Origin: Dehalococcoidales bacterium
Lineage (GTDB): Bacteria; Chloroflexota; Dehalococcoidia; Dehalococcoidales; CSSed11-197
Direction of reading: 5' to 3'
Assembly: GCA_028717385.1 (NCBI GenBank)
Contig: JAQUNW010000002.1
Span: forward strand, 3,465 to 67,464
Length of the DNA: 64,000 nt
Within the stretch, counting starts at the first letter, position 1, and every line of letters starts with the position of its first letter. The notes beneath the pieces were generated by a model. It was given only the letters and a program-made list of their open reading frames with translations. It did no database searches and was not told where the DNA came from. The translations under genes were made by a program, and so were the position numbers. This document shows, piece after piece, positions 4,279 through 61,500 of the stretch.

Positions 4279-4340
4279 CCCGTATATAAGAAAAAACATC
4301 TTGACGTTGGCGCTCTATACGTATAAGATCCTTGGGCAGT

Positions 4341-4388
4341 AAACGCATGTCATTCCGGGCAAAGTGAAGAGTCTTGCAAGAATTGTTG
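4341..4388. repeat. 48-nt direct repeat, copy B (contains perfect palindrome TCTTGCAAGA)
   Basis: aaacgcatgtcattccgggcaaagtgaagagtcttgcaagaattgttg lies 110 nt downstream of copy A. It overlaps the annotated start of ORF 4374. Confidence 0.6.
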
Positions 4389-4949
4389 TCTACCATAATA
4401 AAAATTAATCAAAACATAATAGATACACTCAAGGCTACTATTGTAGTCATAAGCCTGGTGCTTCTGGCAGTCACCGGTGTGCAGCTATACATAGTCCTGA
4501 CTACCGATACTGAGAGTGATATTTCCTATTTTCTAAAGTTGGCAGAAGACCTTCATGGTGATATCGATGCAGAATTTCTTAAGGAGAACGTTACTGAACT
4601 TGCTGGAATAATTTCTTCTCCAAATCTGGGAGAGTCCAAACCGATAGCTCTGGCAATATCCCACGGCATTTTCATGACCAACGCATACAGGGAAAGGTTT
4701 TACGACCTCATGTCAGTAACCGATGCAACCCTGGTGCTTAAAAATGCTTTGATACAGGAAGGCGGACTATTCTTGAACAGCTATCACAACCTGAGGGAAG
4801 CGCTTAACGACAGCCTGAATGAAGACTACGACTCCCGCGATTCAAATATTCACAAAGTGTTGTCAAAACTTGATGAAGCCCTGGCGTTGAGATATCCAAA
4901 TACTGCCGCTATTGAACGTTGGCTGGGTGAACCAGGAAAACCTGACTAG
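4374..4949 (+). CDS. hypothetical N-terminally membrane-anchored protein
   Basis: Track ORF with one TM helix (VVISLVLLAVTGVQLYIVL). Start codon is uncertain (TTG at 4374, 4383 or 4386). Confidence 0.45.
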   Translation: MQELLSTIIKINQNIIDTLKATIVVISLVLLAVTGVQLYIVLTTDTESDISYFLKLAEDLHGDIDAEFLKENVTELAGIISSPNLGESKPIALAISHGIFMTNAYRERFYDLMSVTDATLVLKNALIQEGGLFLNSYHNLREALNDSLNEDYDSRDSNIHKVLSKLDEALALRYPNTAAIERWLGEPGKPD

Positions 4950-4962
4950 CGAATACCTGTTA

Positions 4963-5160
4963 CTAGCCGCACCCGCTGCAGCCTCCGCAACTGCCAGATG
5001 AGCAGCTGTTGCTCTTTCCGGAGTTAAAGGCAGCATATACCCGTTCCAGTCCAGCTTTCCCACATGACGTGCATTTTACTTCATTGTGGTTTGTACCCAT
5101 TGGCAACAACAGCTCAAAAACACAGTCACATCTAAGGCATTTATAAGAATATAAAGGCAT
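4963..5160 (-). CDS. FmdB-family zinc-ribbon putative regulatory protein
   Basis: 'MPLYSYKCLRCDCVFE...KCTSCGK' CxxC..CxxC ribbon plus Cys/Gly/Ser-rich tail, typical of the FmdB/CxxC_CxxC_SSSS family. Confidence 0.8.
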   Translation of the reverse strand: MPLYSYKCLRCDCVFELLLPMGTNHNEVKCTSCGKAGLERVYAAFNSGKSNSCSSGSCGGCSGCG

Positions 5161-5213
5161 TTTTCCTCTCTATATAGATCCAAATAATTATTGCTGACAG
5201 CAACATCAGCGCT

Positions 5214-5531
5214 CTAGCCTTTTTTAGCAAGTATTTCTTCCGCCCAGGCCATTGCGGCAATCATCCGCGGGAAACCGGCAGTAGTAAGCGTTTGAATAAT
5301 TGCGTGTCTAATTTCTTCAGGGGAGATACCTTCAGAAAGAGCCTGTAACACATGAGACTGGACATCCCCTTCGCTTTCAATCCCAATAGCAATACCAAGC
5401 TTTACCAACCTGCGGCACTTAGCATCCAGCGGACCATCCTGATGGCAGCTCTGGGCTAGTTTGGAAAAATCCCGGGCAATTTCAGGATACTTCTTCTCAA
5501 AATCGGCATAATATTTGGGAGAATATTTCAT
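5214..5531 (-). CDS. carboxymuconolactone decarboxylase (AhpD-like) family protein
   Basis: 105-aa all-helical protein. 'LDAKCRRLVKLGIAIG...ISPEEIRHAI' matches the CMD-domain pattern. Confidence 0.75.
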   Translation of the reverse strand: MKYSPKYYADFEKKYPEIARDFSKLAQSCHQDGPLDAKCRRLVKLGIAIGIESEGDVQSHVLQALSEGISPEEIRHAIIQTLTTAGFPRMIAAMAWAEEILAKKG

Positions 5532-5674
5532 CGCGCTTCCTCCTTAGCATTAGATAAACTCATTATCATGCAAGAAGATTTTGTTGTCAATTGAAATAAT
5601 TTATCGATTAGCGGGATATATTAATCGTGCCTGATTAGAGTATAATATTATTATTAACATGGAGGAAGTTCTTT

Positions 5675-5797
5675 ATGGAATTGCACCTGGTACTCGGCTG
5701 GGGTTCGCCAATCGGTATCGGCATCTTTCTTCTCTGCCTTGCTGGCATGGTTTACATTTTATCCAAAGTAGGTAAAGACAAGGGCGACAGAGATTAA
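5675..5797 (+). CDS. possible 40-aa small membrane protein
   Basis: Not in the track. RBS GGAGGA lies 8 nt upstream of ATG 5675. Translation is MELHLVLGWGSPIGIGIFLLCLAGMVYILSKVGKDKGDRD. Confidence 0.3.
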   Translation: MELHLVLGWGSPIGIGIFLLCLAGMVYILSKVGKDKGDRD

Positions 5798-5897
5798 TAA
5801 ACCAGGAGTGTCCAAGAGTTCTTTCTGGAATATGCAGCGGCAAAACCAGTCTTGCCCTGCCAGGGCTGAAATTATTTTTACAGGGGGATAATAATAA

Positions 5898-6821
5898 ATG
5901 ACAGGATTAATCATAGGGCCGACGATCGGCTTCATATTGCTCATGGTATTTTTTATGTCAGTCTATACTGTAAAGCAGCAAACCTATGTGGTTATCGAAA
6001 GATTGGGCAAATTTACCAAGATTTCGGACCCGGGATTTCATTTCAAATGGCCAATAATCGATCGTATTGCTGGCAGGGTTTCCATTAGGGTGCGGGAACT
6101 AAATGTTGCAGTTAAAACTAAAACCGTCGATAACGTTTTCGTCGATTTATTAATTGCAGTTCAGTATTATGTCACTAAAGAGAAAGTATGGGATGCTTTC
6201 TATAAACTTACCAACCCACAATCACAGATGGAGTCCTTCGTATTCGATACTGTAAGAGCAAAAGTTCCCCACATGAAGCTGGACGAGGTTTTTGAAAGGA
6301 AAGAGGATATTGCACAGGATATTGAAGAGAAACTCGGCAATATCATGCCTGAGTTTGGCTACTTTATTAAAACTGCGCTGGTGAACGATATTGTACCCGA
6401 TACCAAGGTAGCCAATGCCATGAACGAAATCAATGCCCAGGAGAGGCTGAGAGTAGCTGCCGAACACAAGGGCGAAGCCGAAAAGATTTTAATAGTAAAA
6501 GCAGCCGAAGCTGATGCAAAGAGCAAGGAACTTTCCGGCATAGGTATAGCTAACCAGAGAATAGCCATTGTTAAGGGCTTGAGAGAATCCGTAGAGGACT
6601 TCCAAAAATCCATTGAGGGTGTAGATGCCAAAGACGTAATGTCGCTAGTACTGCTTACCCAGTACTACGATATGCTCACCGACGTCGGCCGCCATTCCAA
6701 CAATAATACTATCCTTATTCCGCATTCACCAGGAGCGGTGGGTGAGTTCCAGGAGCAAATACTGACTTCTTTGCTGGCAGCTGATAAGGCAACAAAAGAT
6801 ACCGGCAAGAAAACAGATTAA
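5898..6821 (+). CDS. SPFH/band-7 (stomatin/prohibitin-like) domain protein
   Basis: N-terminal TM followed by 'YTVKQQTYVVIERLGKFTKISDPGFHFKWPIIDR', a typical SPFH core. Confidence 0.85.
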   Translation: MTGLIIGPTIGFILLMVFFMSVYTVKQQTYVVIERLGKFTKISDPGFHFKWPIIDRIAGRVSIRVRELNVAVKTKTVDNVFVDLLIAVQYYVTKEKVWDAFYKLTNPQSQMESFVFDTVRAKVPHMKLDEVFERKEDIAQDIEEKLGNIMPEFGYFIKTALVNDIVPDTKVANAMNEINAQERLRVAAEHKGEAEKILIVKAAEADAKSKELSGIGIANQRIAIVKGLRESVEDFQKSIEGVDAKDVMSLVLLTQYYDMLTDVGRHSNNNTILIPHSPGAVGEFQEQILTSLLAADKATKDTGKKTD

Positions 6822-6831
6822 GGAGGCAACC

Positions 6832-7830
6832 ATGGAGCTTAGCCCGGAAGAAAGGCAGCGGATATACCAGGAAGAAAAAGAGCGGATAGAACAAGAAAAA
6901 GCACAAGCGTCCAGCGCCAAAACCAGCACCCAGTTGCCTCAGAATGTGAGCGGGCTTTTATGTTACCTGGCTGGTTGGATTACCGGCATTATATTCTTGG
7001 TGCTTGAACCCAAAAACAGATTTATTCGCTTTCACGCCACTCAATCTATAGTAACTTTCGCCCCGCTGATGATATTAAGCGGCTTGCTGTCCCTCATCCC
7101 GGTAATTGGTGATGCCTTCAGCGCAATTATCGGCACACTGACTTTTGCCCTTTGGATAATACTCATGATAAAAGCCTACCAGGGTGAAATGTTCAGGCTG
7201 CCACTGGCAGGTGATATTGCAGCTTCTGCTATCAATGATATGCCCCAGACAAGCCAAGAAACTAAAACCGTTGCCCTTGCGAGGGAGACAACGGAAGATA
7301 CCGAACCAATAGCTGTTACTGCCGAAGCCGGGCAACGAGTACACACGGAAAGGGAAGGAAAGGATGACTCCTCCGGGCGTACTGGCCGATTAATTGGATA
7401 CTCATTCGGGATTATCTGGAACATAGCCCTTCTCATTTTCTTTACATGTTTTCACAGCTACATTGCCTGGTACCGGCATGTGCCCGGAGGAGGCTTTTCA
7501 CGTGCCCCGTTGCTCACCAGCGAATTTATGGTATGGCTTCCCATCTTCATTGTAGTAACAGTGCTTACCATTGCCGCCTACATTACGATGATAGTATATG
7601 ACCGCTACTGGTTCCGGGAAGCCACAGAAATGGTGTTGAATATTCTGGGTGTAATAGTAGTTGCCTCTCTTGCCAGCATATTCCCATTCGATTTCAGCAT
7701 AATTCCTGGAGGAGCAGAAACCGCGGTGGCAATTGCCGTAAAATCCAGCTTGATAATAATCGCTGTGATATTGGGAATTGCCGCCTTCGCGAGGTTCGTA
7801 AAGCTGATAGTGTACGCAGTAAGGCAATAA
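6832..7830 (+). CDS. DUF4870-like multi-pass membrane protein
   Basis: 'LLCYLAGWITGIIFLVLEPKNRFIRFHATQSI' motif. Immediately follows the SPFH gene with a 10-nt gap, so probably the same operon. Confidence 0.6.
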   Translation: MELSPEERQRIYQEEKERIEQEKAQASSAKTSTQLPQNVSGLLCYLAGWITGIIFLVLEPKNRFIRFHATQSIVTFAPLMILSGLLSLIPVIGDAFSAIIGTLTFALWIILMIKAYQGEMFRLPLAGDIAASAINDMPQTSQETKTVALARETTEDTEPIAVTAEAGQRVHTEREGKDDSSGRTGRLIGYSFGIIWNIALLIFFTCFHSYIAWYRHVPGGGFSRAPLLTSEFMVWLPIFIVVTVLTIAAYITMIVYDRYWFREATEMVLNILGVIVVASLASIFPFDFSIIPGGAETAVAIAVKSSLIIIAVILGIAAFARFVKLIVYAVRQ

Positions 7831-7929
7831 TGCCAAATTCATCATTATTCACCAAGCGAAAAAAAAGAGGGATTTTGGGCCAGCTTCTTAGATTAAACAA
7901 ACCTGAACCTGATCCGGTTTAAATACTTC

Positions 7930-7957
7930 GGCTGGGAATATAGCTATATTCCCAGCC
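7930..7957. repeat. perfect 28-nt palindrome (14-bp arms, no loop)
   Basis: ggctgggaatatag/ctatattcccagcc, read directly. Lies about 100 nt downstream of the 6832-7830 gene. No adjacent T-run. Confidence 0.7.
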
Positions 7958-8252
7958 ACTTGATAATCCCGCTATTTAATTCAAAATCCCCCGGTTTTAC
8001 TATCTTAGCAAGCCTCTAAACCCTCTGACAGCTTAATAGCTTTTTGCGCGGTTGTGATATAAATAAGGTGCCTATGGGTACGTTTCTTTTCTGTGCGCAA
8101 TGTTTTTTATTATTCGTTCTGTCAACACCGATACCCGAGCTGGAAAAAGAAATAAAGAATCGAAAAAAGTATTATTAGACCACTCATTCGGCAATACCTT
8201 GGTAGTATTTCTGGCGTTATAATAAGAGGCTGGGGAAAGGTAGAAGCTACAT

Positions 8253-8774
8253 ATGAAAAGCAGGAGCTTAATAACTGTCTTTGTTTTTTCTATTTTACTT
8301 ACACAGTTTACATGTGGCTGTAATACTCCTAAAGGCGAAGATCCCAGAAACAACCCTGATGTCCTGGCATCACTGGAAGAAGCCGGAAAGTTGATCGAAA
8401 AACTTTCAATCGCTGAAATAGATATACTGCCGCGTGGTTTTAAGGGATACGAGCTGTACTCTTGGCCAAAAGAAGAGAAGTGGATGTTTACCCTTATTAC
8501 CGGGACCAACCGCACCAAAACCGTGAAGGAGCTTACTACTGTTGAGGATTATATTTCTGAAACCGGCTGGGTAAACATCCATTGTTCAAGTGTAGATGAT
8601 ATACAAACAGCTTTGAGTAAATTGCCGGCAGGAGAACTGGTGGTCTGGTGCGGAGAATTACACATTGGAGAAACAGAGGGCGTAGATTTTAAACTGCCGC
8701 CTGAACAAATTGTTGGCGACATAAAAACACATTGTGAGGCGCTTGGTCTGGATTTAGTAGTTGGAGTAGGTTAA
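8253..8774 (+). CDS. hypothetical lipoprotein
   Basis: Signal peptide with lipobox-like FTCGC. No family recognised. The antisense ORF 8072-8518 is a shadow. Confidence 0.5.
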   Translation: MKSRSLITVFVFSILLTQFTCGCNTPKGEDPRNNPDVLASLEEAGKLIEKLSIAEIDILPRGFKGYELYSWPKEEKWMFTLITGTNRTKTVKELTTVEDYISETGWVNIHCSSVDDIQTALSKLPAGELVVWCGELHIGETEGVDFKLPPEQIVGDIKTHCEALGLDLVVGVG

Positions 8775-21922: not shown

Positions 21923-22014
21923 TGGCGGAGGGAGAGGGATTCGAACCCTCGACACCGGTTTCCCGATGTAAGCGCTTAGCAGGCGCCCGCACTAGACCTC
22001 TATGCGATCCCTCC
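21923..22014 (-). tRNA. tRNA-Ser (anticodon GCT), CCA encoded
   Basis: Minus strand reads GGAGGGA...CCTGCTAAGCG, with anticodon loop CT-GCT-AA. It has a long variable arm, T-arm GAGGGTTCGAATCCCTC and 3' end TCCCTCC-G-CCA. Confidence 0.9.
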
Positions 22015-22446
22015 CCGCCAAGGGCCGTTTGGCCCAGTTACCGGTTTAATATATCACATTCAGTATAAAACCTTAAAGTCTAACCCTTCTTCTGTGCCTA
22101 AAAATTTATACATAGTGTTTAAATGTGGTTTTGTGTTACCTTTTATACAAGTATGGATTATTGGTAAACATAAAGAAAGTTTATTTTTCCCCCATTTTTT
22201 TCCCAGATACAGATGTGCCATTAAGCGCAAATTCGGGCGTTTAAGGGAGCTTTTCTGAGATTTTGGCGAGGGGTGCGTTTGCTCAATCCGCCACAAAAGC
22301 CTTGCCCTCGATATCGGGGTATTGTTAACATTACCCCCGGTTTTATAATATCTTTCTTTATAAATACCCTGGATTATTCATATCAGTCTGTATTTCCCGA
22401 TCGTACGGGTGAGAATCACTTATTTAAAAGGAGTTCTGGTTTAATA

Positions 22447-23772
22447 ATGCCTTTAGCACCACAAATATGGCAGGCGGCTCTCGGAGAATTAGAGCTTCAA
22501 ATGACCCGCCCTAATTTTAATACCTGGCTTAAAGGCACTACCGGGCTTAGTTTTAATGATGGTGTTTTTACAATTGGCGTCCCCAGTTCTTTTGTTGCTG
22601 AATACCTCGAAACAAGCCAATATTCACTTATAGAACGCACTATAATGCGACTCGCCTCCCGTAATGTTAAAATTTGCTTTCAAGTCACCGGTCCCGGTGC
22701 AGATAAAAACGGGCTCAACAACGACAGAAAAACCCCTGATACCACCGTCCACCATCGTTTTAATCCTAGATACACATTCGAAAGCTTTGTTACCGGCAAT
22801 GGCAATCAACTGGCTCACGCGGCGGCAGTAAGCACCGCAAAAGGACCTGGGCAACTCTATAATCCCCTGTTTTTATACGGAGGTGTGGGACTCGGTAAAA
22901 CCCACCTTCTTCATGCTATCGGTCACGTTGCAACAAAAAATAACTTGCAGGCGCTTTACGTCAGCGGCGAGCAGTTCACTAACGACTTTGTCGGCTCTAT
23001 TCGCTCAGGGAACGGAGAAGAATTCCGCAACCGTTATCGTAGTGTAGATATCCTCCTGGTAGACGATATCCAATTTATCAGTGGTAAAAACCAAACAGAA
23101 GAGTGTTTTTTCCATACCTTCAACGAATTGCATAACGGCTCTCGCCAGATAGTTCTTTCAAGTGATCGAACTCCAAAAGAAATGCCTTTGATTGAAGATC
23201 GCCTTCGTTCCAGATTTGAATGGGGGTTAACCGTTGATATACAACCACCAGAATTTGAAACTCGAATGGCAATACTTAAAGCTAAAGTAGAGCGTGATGG
23301 TATCAAGGTTATGCCCGAAGTACTTGAGTTTATTGCCAAAGAAATTAATACAAACGTACGCGAATTGGAAGGTTCACTTAACCGCATTACTGCTTATTCC
23401 AGGCTTCTCCAAGCAGAAATTACTCCCGAGCTTGCACGTAGAGCTATCACTGATATCGGTTCAGGTTCTAAAAACGGTCATTCACCGGATGCTATCATCC
23501 GTGAAGTTGCGGCCTCTTTTTCACTAGAACCTGATGATCTAACTGGTCCGCGTAGAGATAAAACCACCGCACTTGCCCGCCAATTGGCTATGTACTTATT
23601 GAAAAGTTATCATAACTACCCGCTTGTGCAGATTGGAGAGCTGTTGGGAGGGCGCAACGCCTCTACAGTTAGCCATGCGTGCGATAAGATATCACGAGAT
23701 ATCAATAACAACCCTCCTCTTAAACGACAAGTTGAAACCATTCGTAACAAGTTTTCTTCTTCATTAAGCTAA
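22447..23772 (+). CDS. dnaA: chromosomal replication initiator protein DnaA
   Basis: 'NPLFLYGGVGLGKTHLLHAIG' Walker A, 'LLVDDIQF' Walker B, and the C-terminal DNA-binding domain. Start chosen at ATG 22447 (MPLAPQIWQAALGELELQM), not track start 22273. Confidence 0.95.
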   Translation: MPLAPQIWQAALGELELQMTRPNFNTWLKGTTGLSFNDGVFTIGVPSSFVAEYLETSQYSLIERTIMRLASRNVKICFQVTGPGADKNGLNNDRKTPDTTVHHRFNPRYTFESFVTGNGNQLAHAAAVSTAKGPGQLYNPLFLYGGVGLGKTHLLHAIGHVATKNNLQALYVSGEQFTNDFVGSIRSGNGEEFRNRYRSVDILLVDDIQFISGKNQTEECFFHTFNELHNGSRQIVLSSDRTPKEMPLIEDRLRSRFEWGLTVDIQPPEFETRMAILKAKVERDGIKVMPEVLEFIAKEINTNVRELEGSLNRITAYSRLLQAEITPELARRAITDIGSGSKNGHSPDAIIREVAASFSLEPDDLTGPRRDKTTALARQLAMYLLKSYHNYPLVQIGELLGGRNASTVSHACDKISRDINNNPPLKRQVETIRNKFSSSLS

Positions 23773-23780
23773 ATCCTCCA

Positions 23781-24038
23781 TTATCAGCCTTTTAATACAT
23801 TTCGTATAACTGTACCCGCTTATTTCATGATACCCTTGGAAAATTCAATGTTATTTTGATAACTCTAGTTAAAATTTTCGATAACTCCAATTGGTTTTCG
23901 ATAAGTCGAATTATTACTACGTTTAAATTATCGTCATTTTAAAATTCTACCAGCTACAAAATAATATGCTATTATTACTAAGGCTAAAAAACATATAAGT
24001 CTTCCAAGAATGCATGTATTGATTGGAATAATAATAGC
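23781..24038. promoter_or_regulatory. candidate oriC: phased TTTTCGATAA(C/G)TC repeats plus AT-rich region
   Basis: Direct copies at 23854-23865, 23875-23887 and 23895-23907, spaced 20-21 bp apart. A looser copy lies at about 23800 (tttcgtataactg) and an inverted TTATCG at 23928. TTATCAG is at 23781. These are followed by about 130 nt of very AT-rich sequence. Confidence 0.5.
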
Positions 24039-25304
24039 GTGTTCGATAGAGCGAAAATAATAATAAAATCTGGAAAAGGTGGAGCTGGCCTGGCAAGTTT
24101 CCGCCATGAGAAATTTGTTCCCTTTGGCGGTCCTGATGGGGGTGATGGGGGTGATGGAGGTGATATTATCCTGTTAGTTGATCGAAATGAGGATACCCTT
24201 AAAAAATATTATTTTAAAAAAGAATATAGTGCCGAGAATGGGATGCCTGGTCAGCACCGTAAAAAAACAGGCAAATCAGGAAAGAAGCTGATTTTAAAAA
24301 TCCCACCTGGGACAATAATAACCGATATTACTGATCCAGAAAATCCGCATATTATAGCTGATATGGATACCGAGGGGGATGTTTTAGTTGCCGCTAAAGG
24401 GGGGAAAGGCGGCATTGGCAATGTGCACTTTACTTCTTCTACTAACCAGGCACCAAAGTTGGCGTCGGTTGGAGAAGGATCAGAAGAAAAAGTTTTACAA
24501 CTGGAGTTAAAACTAATAGCGGATGTGGGTATAATTGGGCTTCCCAACGCCGGGAAATCTTCCTTGCTTGCTGTAAGTTCAGGCGCCAAGCCCAGGATAG
24601 CCAGCTATCCGTTTACTACACTTGAACCTGAACTCGGTACGGTAGTTTATGCAAAATCCTCGTTTGTGATGGCAGATATTCCGGGATTGATCGAAGGGGC
24701 AGCAGACGGTAAGGGTTTAGGGCATGAATTTCTTCGCCATATTATTCGTACTAAATTGTTAATCCATCTGATAGACGGAAGCTCTCTAGAGCCAATTAAT
24801 GATTTTAAAATAGTTAACCGGGAACTCAATCGATATGATCCTAATCTTTTACACAAACAGCAAATCGTTGTAGTTAATAAGATAGACAAACCAGAAACCC
24901 AGTCCAGAATAGGGGAGATAATAAGGGAATTTGCATCCGAAGGAATTAATCCGTTGTTTATTTCTGCTCTTGCTGGAGAAGGCGTAGAAGGGCTCATTGA
25001 TAAAGTGGATAGACAACTTACCAAAATTGCGGCAATCCAACCGGTAGAAATCGGCGAGCAAGGGAAAATCTTCAGGCCAAAACCATTAAAACAAGGCCCT
25101 TTGATTAAACGTGAGGATGATAGCCTGGTAGTGGTTGATCCTGACCTTGAGCGTTTAGTAGCTGGTAGTGATATTGGTGATACTGAAGTGCGCAGACAAT
25201 TATGGCGAATGATAGAGAAAAGAGTAGGAGTTAAAAATATAGAAAAAGCCGGCGTTAAACCCGGTGATGTGATTCGTGTTGGAGACTTTGAATGGCGGTG
25301 GTAA
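24039..25304 (+). CDS. obg: GTPase Obg/CgtA
   Basis: 'FDRAKIIIKSGKGGAGLASFRHEKFVPFGGPDGGDGGDGG' Obg fold and 'GLPNAGKSSLL' G1 motif. Confidence 0.95.
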   Translation: MFDRAKIIIKSGKGGAGLASFRHEKFVPFGGPDGGDGGDGGDIILLVDRNEDTLKKYYFKKEYSAENGMPGQHRKKTGKSGKKLILKIPPGTIITDITDPENPHIIADMDTEGDVLVAAKGGKGGIGNVHFTSSTNQAPKLASVGEGSEEKVLQLELKLIADVGIIGLPNAGKSSLLAVSSGAKPRIASYPFTTLEPELGTVVYAKSSFVMADIPGLIEGAADGKGLGHEFLRHIIRTKLLIHLIDGSSLEPINDFKIVNRELNRYDPNLLHKQQIVVVNKIDKPETQSRIGEIIREFASEGINPLFISALAGEGVEGLIDKVDRQLTKIAAIQPVEIGEQGKIFRPKPLKQGPLIKREDDSLVVVDPDLERLVAGSDIGDTEVRRQLWRMIEKRVGVKNIEKAGVKPGDVIRVGDFEWRW

Positions 25305-26419: not shown

Positions 26420-26551
26420 TAATATCGGCCAGCGGTTGTTATTCAGGCGATAAGATTTCTCGTATATAAACAGGCGCTTTACTGATATTCCAAAATTATA
26501 AAGAGCCTGATGGGACTTAAAACCTTTAATTCAGTATGATATAATGGCCTT

Positions 26552-26645
26552 GGAGGCGGATAGGCCCTGGTGGGTCTCGCGGACTTCAAATCCGTTGGCG
26601 GGGACCTGGTCGCCGCGGGGGGTTCGATTCCCTCCCCCTCCGCCA
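26552..26645 (+). tRNA. selC: tRNA-Sec (anticodon TCA)
   Basis: GGAGGCGG acceptor. Anticodon loop is C-T-TCA-AA, with the anticodon at 26586-26588. It has a long variable arm (gttggcggggacctggtcgccgc), T-loop GGTTCGATTCC and 3' ..CTCCG-CCA. It lies directly upstream of selD. Confidence 0.88.
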
Positions 26646-26684
26646 TCATTTGATTAGTAATCTGTTCGGAAAGGAGGCGCTCAA

Positions 26685-27734
26685 ATGCCTGATAAACCAG
26701 TAAATCTTATGAGCTTGTCGGAATACTCCGGCTGAGCAGCCAAAATAAGTCCGGGAGACTTAGAAAAAGCACTTAGCGGCCTGGAGTTTAAGTACAACCC
26801 CAACGTACTTGTAGGGATTGAAACTAACGACGATGCCGGCGTTTACCGCATTTCAGACGATACAGCATTGGTTCAAACGCTTGATTTTATTACCGCCATA
26901 GGAGACGGTGAAGGTTACACCTTTGGCCAAATAGCGGCGGCGAATTCCCTTTCGGACGTTTGGGCAATGGGAGGCAAGCCTATTACCGCTATGAGTATTG
27001 TTTGTTTTCCCTCAGATAAACTCGAGACATCAGTACTGCGTTCAATAATTTTGGGCGCATTGGATAAAGTTAATGAGGCCGGAGTGGCTCTGGTTGGTGG
27101 CCACAGTGTAAGGGATAATGAGCTTAAATTTGGCCTCTCGGTTACCGGTATTGTTCATCCGGACCGGATTATTACTAATAAAGGGGCTAGGCAGGGCGAT
27201 AAACTGATATTAACAAAACCGCTCGGTACCGGAATATTAAACACAGCCATGAAAGCCGGCATGCTGGAAGAAAGCCTTAAAAAGAAGACAGTAGGTTATA
27301 TGACTCGCTTGAACAAAGCCGCAGGAGAAGTTATGGCCGAGATGGGAGCCAGCGCTGCTACTGATATTACCGGTTTTGGCTTGATCGGGCATACCTGGGA
27401 AATGGCCAGCGGGAGCAATGTTGCAGTTCAGTTGGAGGTAACAAAGGTACCTGTATTGGAGAAGGTAATTGAATTCTCCCGTATGGGTATTGTGCCGGGT
27501 AAACTACACGATAATATTAATTATTATGCATGCCGAGTTGAGGGCGATCTGAAAAACGATGAGGACTGGATGAGTATCCTCAACGATCCTCAAACATCTG
27601 GTGGATTGCTTATTTCTGTTTCTGAAGATAAAGCCGGGGATATGCTCCGTTTCATACACGATTCCGGAAGTCCTGAGGCGGCCATTATTGGCCAGGTAAC
27701 CGAAGGGCACAAAGGGCATATATATCTAAAATGA
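26685..27734 (+). CDS. selD: selenide, water dikinase (selenophosphate synthetase), Sec-containing (UGA at 26733-26735)
   Basis: Track shows only 26868-27734. Manual upstream translation is MPDKPVNLMSLSEYSG-U-AAKISPGDLEKALSGLEF...DDAGVYRISDDTALVQTLDF, in frame. U aligns with the catalytic Cys/Sec of SelD (E. coli ..GAGCGCKISP..). RBS is AAGGAGG. Confidence 0.9.
26746..26762 (+). promoter_or_regulatory. candidate SECIS hairpin for selD
   Basis: TAAGTC-CGGGA-GACTTA, a 6-bp stem with a 5-nt G-rich loop. It starts 11 nt after the UGA. Confidence 0.5.
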
Positions 27735-31251: not shown

Positions 31252-31392
31252 TTAGCTTTTGCCAATTTTGAACATTTTGGTGCCGCAATCGGGACAAACG
31301 CCTTGAGTAGCCGGCCGTCCATTCTTCATGGTGATGGCGGTAGCTCCCTTCATCTCCTTTTTAGCACGACACTTCATACAATAAGCCTGCAT
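31252..31392 (-). CDS. small zinc-ribbon protein (DUF5679-like), 46 aa
   Basis: Not in the track. Translation is MQAYCMKCRAKKEMKGATAITMKNGRPATQGVCPDCGTKMFKIGKS. Strong RBS GAAGGAGG lies 8 nt upstream. Confidence 0.65.
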   Translation of the reverse strand: MQAYCMKCRAKKEMKGATAITMKNGRPATQGVCPDCGTKMFKIGKS

Positions 31393-31515: not shown

Positions 31516-32499
31516 CTAAGGTCTGAATACTGGAGCCATTGGCAGCAGTAGAGTACATCCGGGTTCCCGATTTATATAACTGCGAGTATAATTCGAAGGG
31601 AATGAATAGACTACTTGCGCTTTAGGATGCTCAAGGCAAAACAGGAATACCCCAACAGTCTGTGATTTAGTTCCAAATGGCCCGATTACCATATTGTAGC
31701 CCTCTTTAACTTCCAGAAATATGGTTTCAAGCGCATTTCTGGCTGCATATGGATCGTCGGGTGGGGCGGTTCGCACTTCCACCGAAGGAAGAGACAGGAG
31801 CCGGGCATTATTACGTTTAGCGTAATCGAGATACTCTTCCTTGCCATCTCGTGGAGGATTGGTGATTATTCCAATCACCTTTGCCGGATTGAAATGCTTC
31901 CAGACGCTTAGTGCCCTTTCTGGTTCGAATCCTAAAAACATTATGAGGAGTGTCTCTTTATCCATCGACATATTACCAAAAAAGTTGGGCACTGTGGTGA
32001 TTTGTTCCACTCCTCGGGTAAGGCGGGTTGGCGCGTATGTTTGCGTAGTATGTAGTAGACGAGGAATTCCCATATTTTGATCGGCAACCAAAAAATGTAA
32101 TAATTCCAGCAAGTAAATCTTGGTAAAACTGGAAATATCGATGGTTATGCAGGGTTCATCCGGATCCTTTGGCTTGCAACGGCTCCAAACACTCCTGAGC
32201 TGGTTGATTGCTTCGGTTGGTGCATCCCGCTGGCAGCGAACAACGAAAACGCCTTCGCTGGTTCGCTTCCCCAATTCTGCCTGTAGTTTGAATAGGTTGG
32301 TTTCGACGTGTTGTTTGTAAAAAGGATCTTCTACAACAAAAATAACACTAAAACGGGTACGAAACCCCATTCCCATTTTAGAAACAGACTGGATACAGCG
32401 GTCTTCAAATCCAGCGCAGCAGATAAATAAATCATCTGGGCCGTACTCGTTGATCCGGTTAAGTTGCTCAATTTCTATTGGCTGGTCGTGTATCTTCAT
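31516..32499 (-). CDS. internally duplicated Rossmann-like protein with CARF/Csa3-like motifs (function unknown)
   Basis: The two halves are parallel: 'LFICCAGFEDRC...SVIFVV...ITIDISSFTK' and 'LLIMFLGFEPERAL...KVIGIIT...NMVIGPFGTK'. Start is set at ATG 32499 (MKIHDQP), with ATG 32535 as the alternative. The track start 32730 overlaps the divergent gene and is unlikely. Confidence 0.55.
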   Translation of the reverse strand: MKIHDQPIEIEQLNRINEYGPDDLFICCAGFEDRCIQSVSKMGMGFRTRFSVIFVVEDPFYKQHVETNLFKLQAELGKRTSEGVFVVRCQRDAPTEAINQLRSVWSRCKPKDPDEPCITIDISSFTKIYLLELLHFLVADQNMGIPRLLHTTQTYAPTRLTRGVEQITTVPNFFGNMSMDKETLLIMFLGFEPERALSVWKHFNPAKVIGIITNPPRDGKEEYLDYAKRNNARLLSLPSVEVRTAPPDDPYAARNALETIFLEVKEGYNMVIGPFGTKSQTVGVFLFCLEHPKAQVVYSFPSNYTRSYINREPGCTLLLPMAPVFRP

Positions 32500-32670
32500 C
32501 TTCCTTGTATGAAAACCGGTGCTGTCTGTTGCCATCAATATAATCAGCAACGACAAGAATGTCAACACTAGCCGGCTTCCAAACGATTGCTTGGCTACAC
32601 ATGGCCTGAAACATACTTGGTTAATAAAGAAACCCATCAGGTTGACCCAGACCGAATACCCGGTTATGAT

Positions 32671-35600
32671 ATGGTCATGTCCCGCATTATCCTGGCAGTG
32701 GCAATGCTGGCACTCCAAATACCAATACAATTAAACGTCCCGGTGGCAACTTCCCCCTACTACCACCAGCCGGCTTTAAAATGGAACAGGATTAATACTC
32801 CTTCCGAAGATTCGATAGTTGCCCCTGGAAGTGACGTTTTACAGCTCATGGCTGCCCAAGATTCAACACTTTATAGTGTTGTTAGGGACGGAGACTGCCG
32901 CCTCTATCATTCTGAGGATGGCGGGCGCCGTTGGGAGAAGCTCGCATCGCTTGAACAAGGTTTCGTAGAACTTGTGGAATACCGCCATGAAGCAGGTGTT
33001 TTATATTATGCCACCCCTTCCATGGTTTTTAGATCAGAAGATGGCGGTCGTTCATTTTCCATCCTCCCATGGTTACCCGGGGTAGATGGGGAAACAAGTT
33101 TTATTACCGCTATCGCGGTTGCATCGGTTGAAGGAGAAGAAATAATTGCGGCAACGGTGGCGTCTTCCGGAGAAGGTGGAACCCGCGGTATTTTTCTGCT
33201 GAAATCCAACGAATTTCTTTCCCGCTGGTGTGATAGCGGTCTCACATCTTTTAATGCCTATTCAGTCAGGTTTATTCCTGGCTATAGTGATGAAATTGCT
33301 CTGGCTGCGGTTGGTATTCAGGAAGGCGATTTTGTTTTCAAAACGATGATAGGCAATGCAGGCTGGAGTAATACGTGGAACGATGGGATTATCACGAGCA
33401 ATTTGAAAACTGGCCTAACACTGGAGGAAGCCGTTTTAGTGTTCCCGGCTGGATTTAATCCCTTTCACCCGGTGGTACTGGTCGGTTTGAATACAGAGGG
33501 AGGAGGGGTGTACCGGGTAGAATTGGCCAGTGGTTTGACAGCTACTGGTGTTTATAAGTTAACGGCAGATGGCACCAGCGCGGTAACTTCACTGAACGTA
33601 GCTGACAATGGAACTATCCTGGCAGGAACAGCTACAGGTGACCTGTATCTTTCCCATGATCATGGGATAACCTGGAAACAGCCGTTCAAACCACCGACAG
33701 GGGAAAGAATCACCTCTGTTGTGGCGCTTCCGCAAGGTTTTTATGTGACCGCCACGGGTTCTGAGAGCGCAGTTTCTTTTTCTGAAGATGGTTACCATTG
33801 GGAGCAATTATCATGGGTTGATACACGCATAGATTCCCTGCTGGATTTTGCAGTTGCGCCTCAGCGCTGTCAGGATAAAGCCATTTATTTATTAACCTGG
33901 GGAGGAAGTTCCAGCCTCTGGTATTCTGCAGATGGAGGAAACAGCTGGCTCCGCTATTTGAACAGCAGCGTGACTGAAGGTATTTTTGAAAAAGTGTGCA
34001 TTTCGCCGGAATATGGACGATCGCAGGAAGTTATATATATGGCTGGTGAAGGCAGTGATGGCTCCAGGGTATGGAGATCAGCAGATGGCGGGAAAAGTTA
34101 TGTCACGAGGAATTGCCCGCTTCAGATTGACTGCCTGGAAATCATTGGTGATGACGAACTGTTGGCCGGGGCTTTCGATGGAAGGTGCGGAGTTATTCTG
34201 CGTTCTCAAAACGCTGGCCGTTCATATACGTATTCTATAGCTGGAGAAGCACCCATATATTCTTTGGCAGTTGCTCCCGGTTCGGCTGGTTGGAATATAT
34301 TAACTGGAGATTTTGCCGGGGGCGTATATTATTCCGAGAACGCAGGCGTAAATTTTTGCCGGTTGTCCGGTACAGACAAACTCAGTGGTGCGATCAGCGT
34401 GTCGTTTGATAACGCTTTTAGCGAAAACAATCGTATCTTTGCGGCTTCGGACTTTCCCGGTGAAGGTATATACTCCGCCAAAGTTTCTTCGGAAATAGAT
34501 TGGAAGAGACTGGAGCTCGAAGACGAGCAGGTGCAGAGCAGGATGGGCTGTCTGGTTGTTGCTGAAAATGGCCTGGTATATGCTGCTGATCTGCAGCCAT
34601 TGAAGTTGGAGGCAGATCGGGGCAAGGTGATGCGAATCCTTAGAACTACGCAAGGTCCGGCAGCTGTTGAAATAATTACAAAGGGGCTTGATGAGGGGTG
34701 TTCTCTCGGGAAAATGATATCAGCAGGAAACACATTATGGGCAATAGATATCAACAATAACAGGCTTCTCCATTATACGGATACGCTTGCCAGCCCTCCG
34801 GAATTAGTATTCCCGCTGGATGGGGCAAAAGATGTTGGCATTGCTGGTAATGGTTATGTAAGCAACATCCGGCTTGAATGGGAGGTCTTGCCCGGGGCGG
34901 CGGAATACCACTGGCAGGTTTCTGACAACTCTTCTTTTAGTAAAATCCAGGAAGATTTAGAAGGATTTTCCGACCATACTGAGCTTTTGTTGCCCAAGCT
35001 GGATGCGGAAACCAGCTATTATTGGCGTATAAGGGCGGTAAAGCCAGTTTCCAGTGTATGGTCAGAGACAGGACGGTTTAAAACCGCACTCCCGACCAGT
35101 GTGGTTACTCCCAGGTTGGAAAAACCCTTGCCTGGAGAAAGAGACGTGGTTACCAGGCCGTTATTCCAGTGGGAGAAAATCGAAGGCGCAGACTATTACG
35201 AACTGGTAGTAGGTACTAACCCAGATTTCAAGGAACCGGTTTTAACCTGTATCGGGCTGGAAGCCTTAAGAGCTAATGCCTGCCAGGCGACCGATGAGCT
35301 TGAATATGCAACTGTGTATTTTTGGAAAGTCAGGGCGGTAGATGCTGGCGGAGCAAGTGACTGGAGCGGAGTTGGCAGTTTTAGAACAGCAGATCCACCA
35401 GGCCAGCCAGGAGTACCTGCCACGGAATCTCCCGTGACTACTATTACCTTGCCGATAACCACTGTTATCAATATTGGGGATATCACCGTAGTTGTTCCGC
35501 CTCTGGAGATTCCTGGGCAGACTATAGTCGTGACGCAATCTCCTGGTCCCAGCTACCCTCAGATAACTACGCGGATGCCACAATATGTCTATGTGATAAT

Positions 35601-35676
35601 TGTATTGTTGGGAATGGCTTTGTTCGTATTGCTAATACTGCTTACTGTAATTACAGTTAGAAGCCGGCAGGGCTAA
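32671..35676 (+). CDS. large secreted/membrane-anchored BNR (Asp-box) repeat protein with two FN3-like domains and a C-terminal TM anchor
   Basis: Eight SxDxGxxW/F-type boxes: SEDGGRRW, SEDGGRSF, SHDHGITW, SEDGYHW, SADGGNSW, SADGGKSY, SQNAGRSY, SENAGVNF. Two FN3-like units (..YYWRIRAV, ..YFWKVRAV), a P/T-rich linker and TM 'YVYVIIVLLGMALFVLLILLTVITV'. Signal-peptide-like start at ATG 32671 or 32677. Confidence 0.8.
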   Translation: MVMSRIILAVAMLALQIPIQLNVPVATSPYYHQPALKWNRINTPSEDSIVAPGSDVLQLMAAQDSTLYSVVRDGDCRLYHSEDGGRRWEKLASLEQGFVELVEYRHEAGVLYYATPSMVFRSEDGGRSFSILPWLPGVDGETSFITAIAVASVEGEEIIAATVASSGEGGTRGIFLLKSNEFLSRWCDSGLTSFNAYSVRFIPGYSDEIALAAVGIQEGDFVFKTMIGNAGWSNTWNDGIITSNLKTGLTLEEAVLVFPAGFNPFHPVVLVGLNTEGGGVYRVELASGLTATGVYKLTADGTSAVTSLNVADNGTILAGTATGDLYLSHDHGITWKQPFKPPTGERITSVVALPQGFYVTATGSESAVSFSEDGYHWEQLSWVDTRIDSLLDFAVAPQRCQDKAIYLLTWGGSSSLWYSADGGNSWLRYLNSSVTEGIFEKVCISPEYGRSQEVIYMAGEGSDGSRVWRSADGGKSYVTRNCPLQIDCLEIIGDDELLAGAFDGRCGVILRSQNAGRSYTYSIAGEAPIYSLAVAPGSAGWNILTGDFAGGVYYSENAGVNFCRLSGTDKLSGAISVSFDNAFSENNRIFAASDFPGEGIYSAKVSSEIDWKRLELEDEQVQSRMGCLVVAENGLVYAADLQPLKLEADRGKVMRILRTTQGPAAVEIITKGLDEGCSLGKMISAGNTLWAIDINNNRLLHYTDTLASPPELVFPLDGAKDVGIAGNGYVSNIRLEWEVLPGAAEYHWQVSDNSSFSKIQEDLEGFSDHTELLLPKLDAETSYYWRIRAVKPVSSVWSETGRFKTALPTSVVTPRLEKPLPGERDVVTRPLFQWEKIEGADYYELVVGTNPDFKEPVLTCIGLEALRANACQATDELEYATVYFWKVRAVDAGGASDWSGVGSFRTADPPGQPGVPATESPVTTITLPITTVINIGDITVVVPPLEIPGQTIVVTQSPGPSYPQITTRMPQYVYVIIVLLGMALFVLLILLTVITVRSRQG

Positions 35677-41001: not shown

Positions 41002-41988
41002 ATGGAGCGCCCAACAAGCGAATTGGATCATTTCCCCAGGCTGTTAAGAGTCTACCAGATACTCGCCGATAGTAAAGAAGGAGTTACCGCGAAGACATTG
41101 TCCAAAAATTTAGAGGTTAATGTACGCACAGTCTATCGAGATATCAAAGAACTGGAACAGGCAGGAGTCCCTATTTGGGAGGAGCAATCCAGGTATCGTA
41201 TCAGCAACAAGCATTTTCTGCCGCCGCTAAACCTGACAGTGCCGGAAGCAATCCAGGTTTTCCTTTCATTGCGGTTGCTGTTGCAGTATGCACGGCGAAA
41301 CAGTGTTGACGTGGCCAGCCTGTTTCTTAAATTAAAGAAGATTGTACCTGTGCCGTTGCAGGATGAAATCGCCAAAACTTCGCGGTGGATGCAGGATTTG
41401 CCATCAAATCCGCGGCTGAACCGTAATATTTCATTGTTGGCACAATCCTGGGTTTCCCGCTTAAGGGCAAAAATATTATATAAGTCTCTTGACGCTGAGA
41501 CTGCTACGAGCCGTATGATAGAGCCTTATTTCATAGAGCCTGCAGCCAGCGGGCGCTCATGTTATGTAATTGCATATTGCCTGTTGAAGAAAGAGATCCG
41601 TACCTTTAAAGTAGAAAGAATTCAGAGTGTTCATATAACTGAAGAAAAGTACGAGATTCCCAAAGAATTCGATGCTAATCGTTATCTTAGTCCGTCACTC
41701 GGCATCATGGTAACCAGTGATGAATTGACAAAAATCAAACTCAGGTTCAAACAGAAGATTGCACGCATTATCGAGGAATCTGTTTGGCATCCATCTCAGA
41801 AACTGGTTAATAACGAAGACGGATCTCTTACAATGACGATGGAAATAAACGAATCTCCTGAATTGGTAAAATGGGTACTTGGATGGGGGGACAGCGTTGA
41901 AGTGGTTTCGCCGGACTGGCTTCGGGATGATATAAAAAACCAGACAGCCAGGATGGCTGCTGTCTATTCTAAAACAAAACATTTTTGA
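41002..41988 (+). CDS. HTH-WYL domain transcriptional regulator (PafBC/BrxR-like architecture)
   Basis: N-terminal wHTH 'VTAKTLSKNLEVNVRTVYRDIKELEQAGVPI', central WYL region 'SCYVIAYCLLKKEIRTFKVERIQSV', and a C-terminal extension. Confidence 0.8.
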   Translation: MERPTSELDHFPRLLRVYQILADSKEGVTAKTLSKNLEVNVRTVYRDIKELEQAGVPIWEEQSRYRISNKHFLPPLNLTVPEAIQVFLSLRLLLQYARRNSVDVASLFLKLKKIVPVPLQDEIAKTSRWMQDLPSNPRLNRNISLLAQSWVSRLRAKILYKSLDAETATSRMIEPYFIEPAASGRSCYVIAYCLLKKEIRTFKVERIQSVHITEEKYEIPKEFDANRYLSPSLGIMVTSDELTKIKLRFKQKIARIIEESVWHPSQKLVNNEDGSLTMTMEINESPELVKWVLGWGDSVEVVSPDWLRDDIKNQTARMAAVYSKTKHF

Positions 41989-58563: not shown

Positions 58564-61500
58564 TTAATTTTCCTTTAAATCACAGCGCAAACAGCGCCGA
58601 GCTTCTCGTATAGCATTATCCCACGAGAAACCCAAGCTGGTCTCATTGAAATTGCCATCGCGTTCCGCTGGTGTCAGCTCTGGAATCAGGCTACGTGAAC
58701 CAAGCTCGATTTCCTCTTCGCTCCATGGAATGTCCACAGGAGTATTATTAACCCTAAAACGGTCTTTATCAAAGGGTATTCCCCGTATATAGCAGTCTAT
58801 CGATATGGCAGCTCTTTCGCCTCCAGCCATGGCTTCTATGACCGTCAATGGCCCGGTTACGTTATCGCCGGCGGCAAAAACTCCTTCATGCCCTGTTTGC
58901 ATGGTTATATTGTTTATTCCGATAGTTTTATTGGTATTTATTTTAATTGCGCCAGACTGGTTTAGAAAACTGGTATCCGGTATTTGTCCCACCGCGGCAA
59001 TAACCGTATCAGCCTCCAGGCAAAAGTCCGAACCGGGAATGATTTCCGGGCGTCTCCTACCGCTGGTATCGTAAACGCCTGGGCTTGTTCTCAAGCACTC
59101 GACTCCATATACCTTTGCCTTGCTGCCCATTATCTGTAGCGGAGAAGTTGAATCAAGAATTTGGATGCCTTCTTGCTCTGCTTCGCTTATTTCATCGTCA
59201 TTGGCTGGCATATCCCGGCGCGGTCTTCGATACACTATGGTTACCAATTCAGCGCCAAGACGGCGGGCGGCTCGTGCAGTATCAATTGCAACGTTGCCCC
59301 CGCCAATCACCACCACCTTTTTGCCGGGATTAATCTCGTTACCAAGGTTGATTTGTTTTAGGTAACTTATACCGTCATACACACCGTTAAGATCTTCCCC
59401 GCTTATCCCCAGCTTTTCGCCCGTATGCGCGCCGGTAGCCAGCAAAATGGCGCTGTATCCCTGCCTTTTTAGTTCTTCGATAGATGCCACCGGGCTGTTT
59501 AGTTTGATCTCTACTCCCAGCGAGGTGATAAAATTAATATCAGCCTGGAGTACCCGGCGAGGCAGACGGAACTCCGGAATTCCAGCGGCGAGCATGCCGC
59601 CAGCAACTGGAAGAGCTTCAAAAATGGTAACCGAGTAGCCTTTTTTTGCCAGATGATAACCTGCATTCAATCCGGCAGGGCCTGATCCCACAATGGCAAT
59701 TTTTTCCTTCCGCGCCGGTTTAAGCTTTTTTATTACCCCAGTTCTATTTTCAGCACCAAAATCAGCAGCTGCACGCTTTAGGGCGGCAATCGAAACCGGT
59801 TGGTCAATATCACCGCGGCGGCAGCGAGTTTCGCAGGGATGGTGACAAACCCGTCCGCATATACCTGCCAGCGGGTTTCTGCGCCGTTCCAACTCCAGGG
59901 CTTCCTCGAATTTGCCCTGACTGATAAGGGCGATATAGCCTGGAGCATCCACGTTGAGCGGACAGATATGCTCACATGGAGCGTAAACCATTGACTCGCA
60001 CGAAGCTGCCGGGCAGCGCTTTTCCCGGATATGGACTTCATATTCTTCCCGGAAATATTTAATGGTACTTATAACCGGGTTAGGAGCATTTTGCCCGAGT
60101 CCACAGAGAGAAGTGTCCTTAATGTTTTCTGCCAGTTCAAGCAGCAGCTCAATATCCCCTTCTCTGCCTTCACCGCTGGTGATACGGGTAAGAATCTCCA
60201 GCATTCGTTTGGTTCCCAGGCGGCAAGGAGTGCATTTTCCACACGATTCAGATTGAGTAAAGCTGATGAAGAAGCGGGCAATATCTACCATACAGGAAGA
60301 TTCATCCATTACCACCAAACCGCCGGAACCCATTATTGAGCCAATTCCCGAAAGGGATTCATAATCGATAGGCAGCCCAAGATATTTTGAGGGCAGGCAA
60401 CCACCCGAAGGGCCGCCAATCTGAACCGCCTTGAATCTGCGTCCTTCAGGAATGCCTCCACCAATATCGTAGATAAGCTCTCCCAAGGTTGTCCCCATGG
60501 GCACTTCTACCAGCCCGGTGTTATTAACAGCACCGGTGAGTGAAAAAATCTTGGTTCCCTTGCTGGTTTCTGTTCCTATGGCAGCATATTTAGCGCTTCC
60601 CTGGTTGATGATATAAGCAACATTGGCTAGTGTTTCAACATTATTAATATTGGTAGGCTTTCCCCACAAACCACTTTGAGCAGGGAATGGTGGCCGTGGG
60701 TGCGGCCGTCCGATTTTCCCTTCGATGGAAGCCATCAAGGCAGTTTCTTCTCCGCACACAAAAGCTCCAGCTCCTTCAATAACCCTGATTTCGAGGCTGT
60801 AACCAGAATTTAAAATATTATCTCCCAGCAAACCAAGACGTTTGGCGTCTTCTATGGCTAGTTTAAGATTGGAAACTGCCAGTGGGTACTCAGCTCTGAC
60901 ATATATATATCCAGTTGAAGCGCCTGTTGCGAAGGCACCAATGATCATGCCTTCCAGCACCAGGTGCGGATCGCCTTCCATAATGCTGCGGTCCATGAAG
61001 GCTCCCGGATCGCCTTCATCGCCGTTACAAACCATATATTTCCTGTCTCCAGCCGCCTTTCTGGCAAGGTCCCATTTCCTACCGGTGGGGAAACCGGCTC
61101 CTCCTCGCCCCCTCAGCCCTGAGGCAAGAATTTCTTCAATTACCAACTCGGGCGTCATGGAACTTAGTACTTTTCTAACTGCCTGGTAGCCGCCATTGCT
61201 GATGTAATCATGTATGCTCTGCGGGTCCAAATTGCCGTTTCCGGCGAGTACGATACGTTGCTGCTTGGCATAAAAAGGAACTTCGCGGTCAAAAGCCTGC
61301 TTTTTTCCACTGGCAGGATCAACGTAGAGCAGGTGATCAACGACCTGTTTGCCAATAATTGTTGTGGAAATGATTTCCTTGACGTCATTCGGAGTAACCT
61401 GGGGGTAAAATATACCGCTTGGCTGAATAGATACAATCGGTCCCCGTTCGCAAAAGCCATGACAGCCGGTAGCTGAAAGTATTACCCGGTCGTTTAGACC

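Follow-up and report, generated by a model that had tools for sequence, protein, structure and literature searches.

The stretch of DNA analysed here, 64,000 nucleotides from a Dehalococcoidales bacterium and called the window below, carries on its minus strand a gene of 327 codons plus stop (31516–32499). We identify its product, with high confidence, as a tandem CARF protein of the CARF6 family. A first-pass annotation of this DNA had placed the gene at 31516–32499, and all the peptides that it quoted were located in the translation. The ATG at 32499 corresponds to the start in nearly all of hundreds of orthologues, which begin MK and most of which are exactly 327 amino acids long. A longer, TTG-initiated open reading frame (ORF) of 404 amino acids in the mechanical ORF list was rejected as the gene for this reason. 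The sequence TTGACA-17-TATATT (32537–32565, minus strand), ~38 nucleotides before the ATG, is promoter-like as a pattern match, scoring 11/12 in a scan for the sigma-70 consensus. An identical protein is present in NCBI as MDD5604464.1, where it is labelled 'hypothetical protein'.

One chain with two CARF domains

Pfam and NCBIfam scans of the 327-amino-acid protein returned no match, and a phmmer search of the PDB sequences with the single sequence gave noise only. Among the PADLOC-DB models, PDLC01911 'CARF6--CARF_CARF_CARF' matched with E = 1.1e-160 and 532 bits, residues 1–322 of the protein aligning with positions 1–321 of the 325 in the profile. Eleven further CARF6 models matched with E between 7e-34 and 4e-7, and the second half of the protein additionally gave weak matches to the Csx1/Csm6, CARF1 and CARF3 models. 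Going by its PADLOC label the protein would have three CARF units; the alignment and modeling described below give two.

The family is large. When the family profile was run against 1.84 billion cluster representatives, at least 1,420 clusters (50% identity) matched with E ≤ 1e-3, of which 594 reached E ≤ 1e-10; nearly all are of 300–345 amino acids. The CARF6 protein has 396 matches in a 90%-clustered database, and orthologues in at least 80 Dehalococcoidia species. The description of the protein as an orphan was thus mistaken. It had also been put forward as a candidate for something undescribed, and that too must be withdrawn, as PADLOC-DB already had the CARF6 profile and a list of architectures from 2014 (PMC4012209) includes two CARF domains fused together.

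For the analysis of internal structure we aligned 91 family members of 21–66% identity, with an effective number of sequences (Neff) of 7.2. Half 1 (residues 1–172; 31984–32499, minus strand) was compared with half 2 (residues 173–327; 31519–31983, minus strand) using hhalign. The two halves aligned with a probability of 96.8% and E = 2.6e-10 over 135 columns, and a control in which half 2 was reversed gave E = 0.28. Using only 25 close orthologues (Neff 1.7) the same register was found with E = 0.3, which is not significant. The duplication is real, and its significance needs a diverse alignment. The first-pass annotation had proposed the tandem duplication, making it depend on statistical support for the repeat, and the register that it gave (GFE/GFE, D-A-P/D-D-P and FTK/GTK) proves to be exact; hhalign pairs C-A-G-F-E-D-R with L-G-F-E-P-E-R and S-F-T-K with F-G-T-K.

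AlphaFold2 modeling on the 91-sequence alignment predicted two alpha/beta domains of six strands each, with a predicted local distance difference test score (pLDDT) of 95.1 and a predicted TM-score (pTM) of 0.93. This superseded a model based on a shallow alignment, for which pLDDT was only 70. Half 1 comprises a short N-terminal segment and the first CARF domain, with strands at residues 22–29, 48–56, 80–89, 118–121, 147–153 and 166–169. Half 2 forms the second six-stranded CARF domain, with strands at residues 182–189, 207–213, 240–245, 268–274, 295–300 and 313–318. CARF domains are recognized by a six-stranded Rossmann-like core in which strands 5 and 6 make a hairpin (PMC4012209); in the predicted structure both halves have six strands, with the last two adjacent. 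Foldseek searches of the PDB matched the CARF domains of Cam1 (8t64–8t66), Thermus thermophilus Csm6 (8jbc, 5fsh), Can2 (8bao, with a root-mean-square deviation (rmsd) of 2.6 Å over 118 columns), Card1 (6xl1) and E. italicus Csm6 (6tug), all with a probability of 1.00 and with rmsd values in the range 2.6–4 Å. The family profile searched against PDB sequences matched Card1 (E = 1.5e-3, residues 237–306), placing G276-T277-K278 on the G-G-T-K loop of Card1 (6xl1/6wxw). Pfam matches among the 91 members were weak and exclusively of CARF type, comprising HFX_2341_N in 16, CARF_Card1 in eight and Csa3_N in one.

The earlier view of both halves as CARF-type Rossmann domains is therefore borne out by the PADLOC CARF6 match, the Foldseek probability of 1.00 and the profile match to Card1. 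The term 'Csa3-like' was too specific, given the weak Csa3_N match in a single member as against 16 for HFX_2341_N and eight for CARF_Card1. A Csa3-type regulator was rejected, as there is no helix-turn-helix (HTH) profile match and no C-terminal winged HTH domain beyond the two CARF units. The statement that no effector is fused to the protein also holds, since the Pfam and NCBIfam scans were blank and the two CARF units occupy residues 22–318 of 327. Identification as SAVED was rejected, since no SAVED model was among the PADLOC matches and none of the 50 best Foldseek matches in the PDB was a SAVED chain. The viral structure library BFVD gave no meaningful match, and a tblastn search of phage genomes found nothing.

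The protein might instead be an ordinary metabolic Rossmann enzyme, or its likeness to CARF a chance matter of motifs. There is no Pfam or NCBIfam model for the CARF6 family, and Foldseek also returned the C-terminal domains of cation-chloride cotransporters, and KaiC, with E ~1e-5 to 1e-4, both of which would suit such an enzyme. However, the latter two-domain matches have rmsd values of 16–21 Å and TM-scores of 0.1–0.33, compared with a probability of 1.00 at 2.6–4 Å for the CARF domains. Because of the high rmsd we take them to reflect generic tandem Rossmann content only, and the metabolic enzyme was rejected on these grounds. Moreover, every sequence-profile match was to a CARF family, and the strand-4 signature of CARF domains is invariant. 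Assignment of the halves to a known metabolic enzyme family had been named at the outset as the finding that would count against CARF; profile and structure searches gave no such assignment for either half. We consider this explanation highly improbable.

CARF domains are marked by a basic residue just after strand 4, often as part of the signature [DN]x[ST]xxx[RK], and by a polar residue, usually serine or threonine, that ends strand 1 (PMC4012209). We counted the conservation of the corresponding loops over the 91 members. In half 1, the loop after strand 4 is D121-I-S-S-F-T-K127 (32119–32139, minus strand), an exact fit to the published signature, with D121 conserved in 90/91, S or T at position 123 in 91/91 and K or R at 127 in 88/91. 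The loop after strand 1 contains E32-D33-R34 (32398–32406, minus strand; S-F-E-x-R in the family), where E32 is found in 87/91 and R34 in 88/91. The equivalent loop of half 2 contains E192-P-E-R195 (31915–31926, minus strand; G-F-E-x-x-R in the family), with G190 in 90/91, E192 in 87/91 and R195 in 88/91, and in the alignment of the two halves E192 and R195 align with E32 and R34. After strand 4 of half 2 is the sequence G276-T277-K278 (31666–31674, minus strand), with K278 in 90/91, T or S at 277 in 82/91 and G276 in 78/91. This half keeps T277-K278, without the D/N and S/T positions of the signature. The canonical ligand-loop residues are kept across the whole family, and this includes the branch in Dehalococcoidia.

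A conserved core gene in Dehalococcoidia

One genome per species was scanned with an alignment of 11 sequences. This found 140 relatives, of which the best 80 all come from Dehalococcoidia, with 56–95% identity. Cultured Dehalogenimonas and Dehalococcoides mccartyi carry the gene, and the product is always named 'hypothetical protein'; a D. mccartyi orthologue is WP_012882481.1. Compared with orthologues whose proteins are 95, 93 and 88% identical, the ratio of non-synonymous to synonymous substitution rates (dN/dS) of the gene is 0.008–0.026, with dN of 0.025–0.061 and dS near saturation in the same three comparisons. In Dehalococcoidia the gene is under strong purifying selection. Beyond the loops there are stretches that are invariant specifically in Dehalococcoidia: L-N-E-Y-G-P-D-D near the N-terminus, the linker H-T-T-Q-T-Y...L-T-R-G-V-E-Q-I-T-T-V-P-N-F-F-G, and Y-S-F-P..Y-T-R-S-Y near the C-terminus. 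These additional stretches point to contacts peculiar to the lineage.

Gene order was compared over ±10 kb in 86 loci, comprising the window and 85 others from Dehalococcoidia (L001–L085), which include a few near-duplicates. Genes for L25 and GGACT lie divergently upstream of the CARF6 gene in 31–32 of the 86, and 42 have a same-strand DUF5679 gene no more than 3 kb away. An HTH_17 gene is found downstream in 32–33, followed by an apparent tRNA-Leu gene. The conserved order is L25/GGACT, CARF6, DUF5679, HTH_17, tRNA-Leu. In the window the DUF5679 gene (31252–31392, minus strand; Pfam E = 2.9e-15) encodes a four-cysteine zinc ribbon of 46 amino acids. It lies 124 nucleotides downstream of the CARF6 gene and has a promoter-like site of its own at 31458–31429. 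It appears to have a bidirectional hairpin terminator in common with the tRNA-Leu gene, as judged by eye, although the scan tool gave none. We asked whether DUF5679 or HTH_17 forms an operon with CARF6, and downgraded this to inherited synteny, because the promoter-like sites are separate, HTH_17 is absent from the window, and in D. mccartyi two unrelated genes intervene between CARF6 and DUF5679/HTH_17. We conclude that CARF6 in Dehalococcoidia is a vertically inherited core gene in a housekeeping neighbourhood.

Association with CRISPR-Cas, above all with type III, is typical of the CARF superfamily, while not strictly defining it; the window and the sampled orthologous loci showed no sign of it. 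The first-pass annotation had noted no CRISPR array, cyclase or HTH protein nearby. For the first two we agree, as there are no CRISPR-like repeats within the 64 kb, and neither a cas10-type nor a CBASS or similar protein came up when 40 of the other large ORFs of the window were scanned with PADLOC; for a further ten ORFs nearby the scan was against Pfam alone. The third holds for the window but not for many of the orthologous loci, in which HTH_17 is recurrent. D. mccartyi strain VS carries a CARF6 orthologue yet is reported to have no CRISPR-cas, and the CRISPR-cas systems of other D. mccartyi strains are type I (PMC4635342). A ligand made by Cas10 is therefore unlikely in this lineage.

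The surroundings of the gene in the window are core chromosome, with genes for a MiaB-like enzyme, dnaA, obg, nadD, tRNA-Sec, selD, selA, selB and tRNA-Leu. The nearest neighbours of the CARF6 gene are the DUF5679 gene on one side and on the other a divergent gene (32587–35676, plus strand) for a BNR/sortilin-repeat protein of 1,029 amino acids, beyond which lie genes for a metallo-beta-lactamase-fold protein and a metallophosphoesterase, and ksgA. The BNR/sortilin-repeat protein contains immunoglobulin/FN3-like modules and, by eye, a C-terminal hydrophobic anchor, and is the 'giant surface protein' of the earlier description. A second ORF of exactly 1,029 amino acids (58564–61653, minus strand) is unrelated to it (BLASTP E = 0.16).

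Other features of the window were also observed. The dnaA gene (22273–23772) lies at the minimum of cumulative GC skew (22–24 kb), with short tandem repeats just downstream (23875–23912), and the region 22000–24200 is probably the replication origin, ~9 kb from the CARF6 gene. The selD gene (26551–27734 region, plus strand) directly follows the tRNA-Sec gene (26551–26644) and precedes selA and selB. Its ATG is at 26685 and there is an in-frame TGA at 26733–26735 (SEYSG*AAK), at the position of the SelD active site, while the ORF is listed only from 26868; from its sequence selD appears to encode a selenoprotein. At 41002–41988 (plus strand) is a gene for an HTH-WYL-type regulator (PADLOC WYL, E = 7.8e-42), which also matched 'Cas3c' with E = 3.8e-71. 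Its identification as Cas3 was rejected, because of the 1,009 positions in the profile the match spans just the initial 318, which are the HTH-WYL part.

ATPase-linked relatives outside Dehalococcoidia

The contexts of distant family members were sampled one by one, counting only representatives with upstream DNA. In all eight of those from outside Dehalococcoidia, a gene for an ORC-CDC6-like P-loop ATPase (PF24389) of 630–930 amino acids lies directly upstream of CARF6 on the same strand, the two being separated by 3–20 nucleotides or overlapping slightly. Seven of the eight were reached through look-ups in metagenomes or genomes and the eighth is on a Moraxella plasmid; the named members are P0130, P0126, P0131, P0134, P0129, P0206 and that of the Moraxella osloensis plasmid p4, where the pair is WP_099808770.1 and WP_076777084.1. 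In a Spirosoma plasmid an unclassified ORF of at least 489 amino acids runs upstream of the CARF6 gene. The six numbered proteins have the same two-domain architecture of 300–345 amino acids as the window protein, and share with it the E-x-R, D-x-[ST]-x-x-T-K and G-T-K motifs.

The modules of ATPase and CARF6 extend over positions 4268–8264 of locus L086, 408–4203 of L089, 483–4229 of L093, 1434–5871 of L096 and 3882–7799 of L099. Several of the ATPases have a C-terminus weakly resembling nucleoside deoxyribosyltransferase or TIR. Neighbouring genes at some of the relatives encode a DpnII/MboI-type restriction endonuclease, N6 and N4 methylases, dUTPase/DCD proteins, a TIR-like protein and a NACHT protein. 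The PADLOC system models gave no match to the ATPase beyond a marginal one to 'CARF6--CARF_STK_AAA', a fused model held in PADLOC-DB. The two-gene module looks like an uncharacterized defence or restriction-like system. In L096 (1–6613) the module lies between two fragments of a gene for formate-tetrahydrofolate ligase (FTHFS), at 1–1235 and 5882–6613, which suggests a mobile insertion into the FTHFS gene.

A few family members have extra regions. P0202 (410 amino acids) has a weak C-terminal match to DUF5678, P0200 and P0258 (~500 amino acids) have an N-terminal extension of ~185 amino acids, and P0206 (617 amino acids) has ~290 additional amino acids at its C-terminus. Those of P0200, P0258 and P0206 gave no match in Pfam. 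The extra regions of these four proteins may be fused outputs of the sensor.

The situation in Dehalococcoidia is different. Elsewhere CARF6 follows the ATPase, often with genes for restriction endonuclease, methylase or TIR-like proteins, whereas the gene of the window and its 85 orthologues stand alone. A tblastn search with the ATPases found nothing in the 64-kb window or in the 85 other Dehalococcoidia loci (±10 kb). The protein could still serve an ATPase-based defence or restriction-like module as its regulatory subunit, as elsewhere in the family, with the ATPase and the effector encoded at other places in the Dehalococcoidia genomes. The constant adjacency of the ATPase in the eight relatives would accord with this, as would the restriction, methylase or TIR-like genes beside some of them, the fused PADLOC model and the coverage of the Dehalococcoidia genomes at ±10 kb only. 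Yet there was no match to the ATPase in the 86 loci, and the gene has a fixed housekeeping synteny across the order, with 56–95% identity and dN/dS of ~0.01–0.03. Genes of defence have a patchy, fast-evolving pattern, unlike that of CARF6 in Dehalococcoidia. Furthermore, the L096 module resembles a mobile insertion, and the Dehalococcoidia gene has no such sign. A surviving role as a subunit of this kind is thus rather improbable.

A proposed receptor of a nucleotide-derived ligand

Several known systems offer a comparison. Can1 (TTHB155), an ancillary nuclease of type III CRISPR, encloses cyclic tetra-adenylate (cA4) at the interface between two CARF domains that belong to the same chain (PMC6981274). 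A CARF pair within one chain is the working principle that we propose, by analogy, for the window protein. Can1 differs in being 636 amino acids long, with a nuclease-like insert between the CARF domains, a C-terminal PD-D/ExK nuclease and a location beside type III CRISPR, whereas the window protein has neither effector nor CRISPR context. The same concept of a fused pair is found in SAVED, where a single nucleotide pocket is built from two CARF-like units of one polypeptide. SAVED, which occurs in CBASS and in type III effectors, is normally fused to an effector, unlike the window protein. Card1 is the closest solved relative by sequence and Can2 is among the best by fold. Both are activated by cA4 and have one CARF domain, which homodimerizes, fused to a PD-D/ExK nuclease, and identity with the window protein is ~15–23% over one domain.

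Most likely the protein acts on a nucleotide-derived ligand, either as an intramolecular pseudo-dimeric receptor or as a degrader. By analogy with Can1, the two halves would pack as an intramolecular pseudo-dimer, resembling the homodimer of single-domain CARF proteins and the CARF pair of Can1. The loops after strand 1 (S/G-F-E-x-R in both halves) and those after strand 4 (D-x-S-x-x-T-K and G-T-K) would together form one asymmetric pocket, and this might bind one nucleotide-derived small molecule asymmetrically, as judged from Can1. Because nothing is fused to the sensor, its output should be either interaction with a partner or turnover or sequestration of the ligand. The former could be a ligand-dependent contact with another protein, for which the ORC/Cdc6-like ATPase is the obvious candidate in the relatives outside Dehalococcoidia. 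In the latter case the CARF6 protein itself would turn over or sequester the ligand. In most of the family the neighbouring ATPase would be what the sensor reports to, or what loads it. For Dehalococcoidia the partner may be encoded elsewhere, replaced or unnecessary, and since the pocket is retained there a ligand is probably still bound.

The main rival to a receptor would be a role as ring nuclease or sponge, in which a CARF protein standing alone cleaves or sequesters a cyclic oligonucleotide and so holds the signal down, in the manner of Crn1, Csx16 and Csx20 acting on cA4. Ring nucleases of this type cleave cA4 in the CARF pocket independently of metal. These three stand-alone CARF-type proteins are ring nucleases, and Csx15 is possibly a sponge (PMC12409355). 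Like the window protein they have the CARF fold without an effector domain, and they function through the ligand pocket (PMC12409355); the known effector-less CARF-type proteins are of just this kind. The predicted pocket of the window protein has many invariant polar residues (E32, R34, D121, S123, K127, E192, R195, T277 and K278), and the conservation measured by dN/dS is at the level of an enzyme. However, Crn1, Csx16, Csx20 and Csx15 are single-domain homodimers of <250 amino acids from type III CRISPR loci, and their profiles in PADLOC and Pfam gave no match to the window protein. The window yielded no cyclic-oligonucleotide synthase, the orthologue in D. mccartyi VS is in a strain reported to be without CRISPR-cas (PMC4635342), and the sampled relatives are linked to ATPase and restriction/methylase genes rather than to Cas10. 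We regard a ring nuclease or sponge as unlikely.

Some observations weigh against a pseudo-dimeric receptor. The strand-1 serine found at position 30 in 79 of the 91 members is a glycine in the window protein, and in half 2 strand 1 ends in G190 (90/91); both halves carry instead a nearly invariant E-x(1,2)-R that is specific to the family. The high conservation of polar residues (E, R, D, S, K and Y) would suit an enzyme equally with a receptor. In the Foldseek comparison no PDB chain fits both domains in one arrangement, the best query-normalized TM-score being 0.31, and Can1 is absent from the top 50 PDB matches. Our searches spanned 64 kb here and ±10 kb elsewhere, and an ATPase, Cas10 or other cyclase may lie further away in these genomes. 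The CARF clades are said to have been defined by Makarova et al. in 2020. A search of the literature, which did not take in that clade-defining paper, gave neither a description nor an experimental study of the CARF6 family, and no ligand, binding experiment or partner for any CARF6 protein.

On balance we lean towards the window protein being a ligand receptor for a signal unconnected with CRISPR, its partner being encoded elsewhere or having been replaced. We do so because no ATPase was detected nearby, and because vertical inheritance among housekeeping genes goes together here with extreme constraint on the sequence. A more specific history is conceivable, and we hold it only tentatively. 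A defence-type CARF6 sensor might have been split from its ATPase and become a core housekeeping receptor or enzyme for an endogenous nucleotide-derived signal, independent of CRISPR and phage defence.

In type III CRISPR immunity, cyclic-oligoadenylate signals are received by CARF domains, and to our knowledge nearly all that has been learned of them comes from proteins that are linked to CRISPR and fused to effectors. The finding of the sequence itself is not new, the family having been catalogued as CARF6. What may be new is the contrast between ATPase-linked modules in defence-like islands and a solo, constrained core gene in Dehalococcoidia. Identifying the ligand would tell what a CARF pocket responds to without Cas10, and might reveal a nucleotide signal in organohalide-respiring bacteria that are relevant to bioremediation. 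If the housekeeping takeover is true, it would be a documented use of CARF in the normal physiology of a streamlined bacterium.

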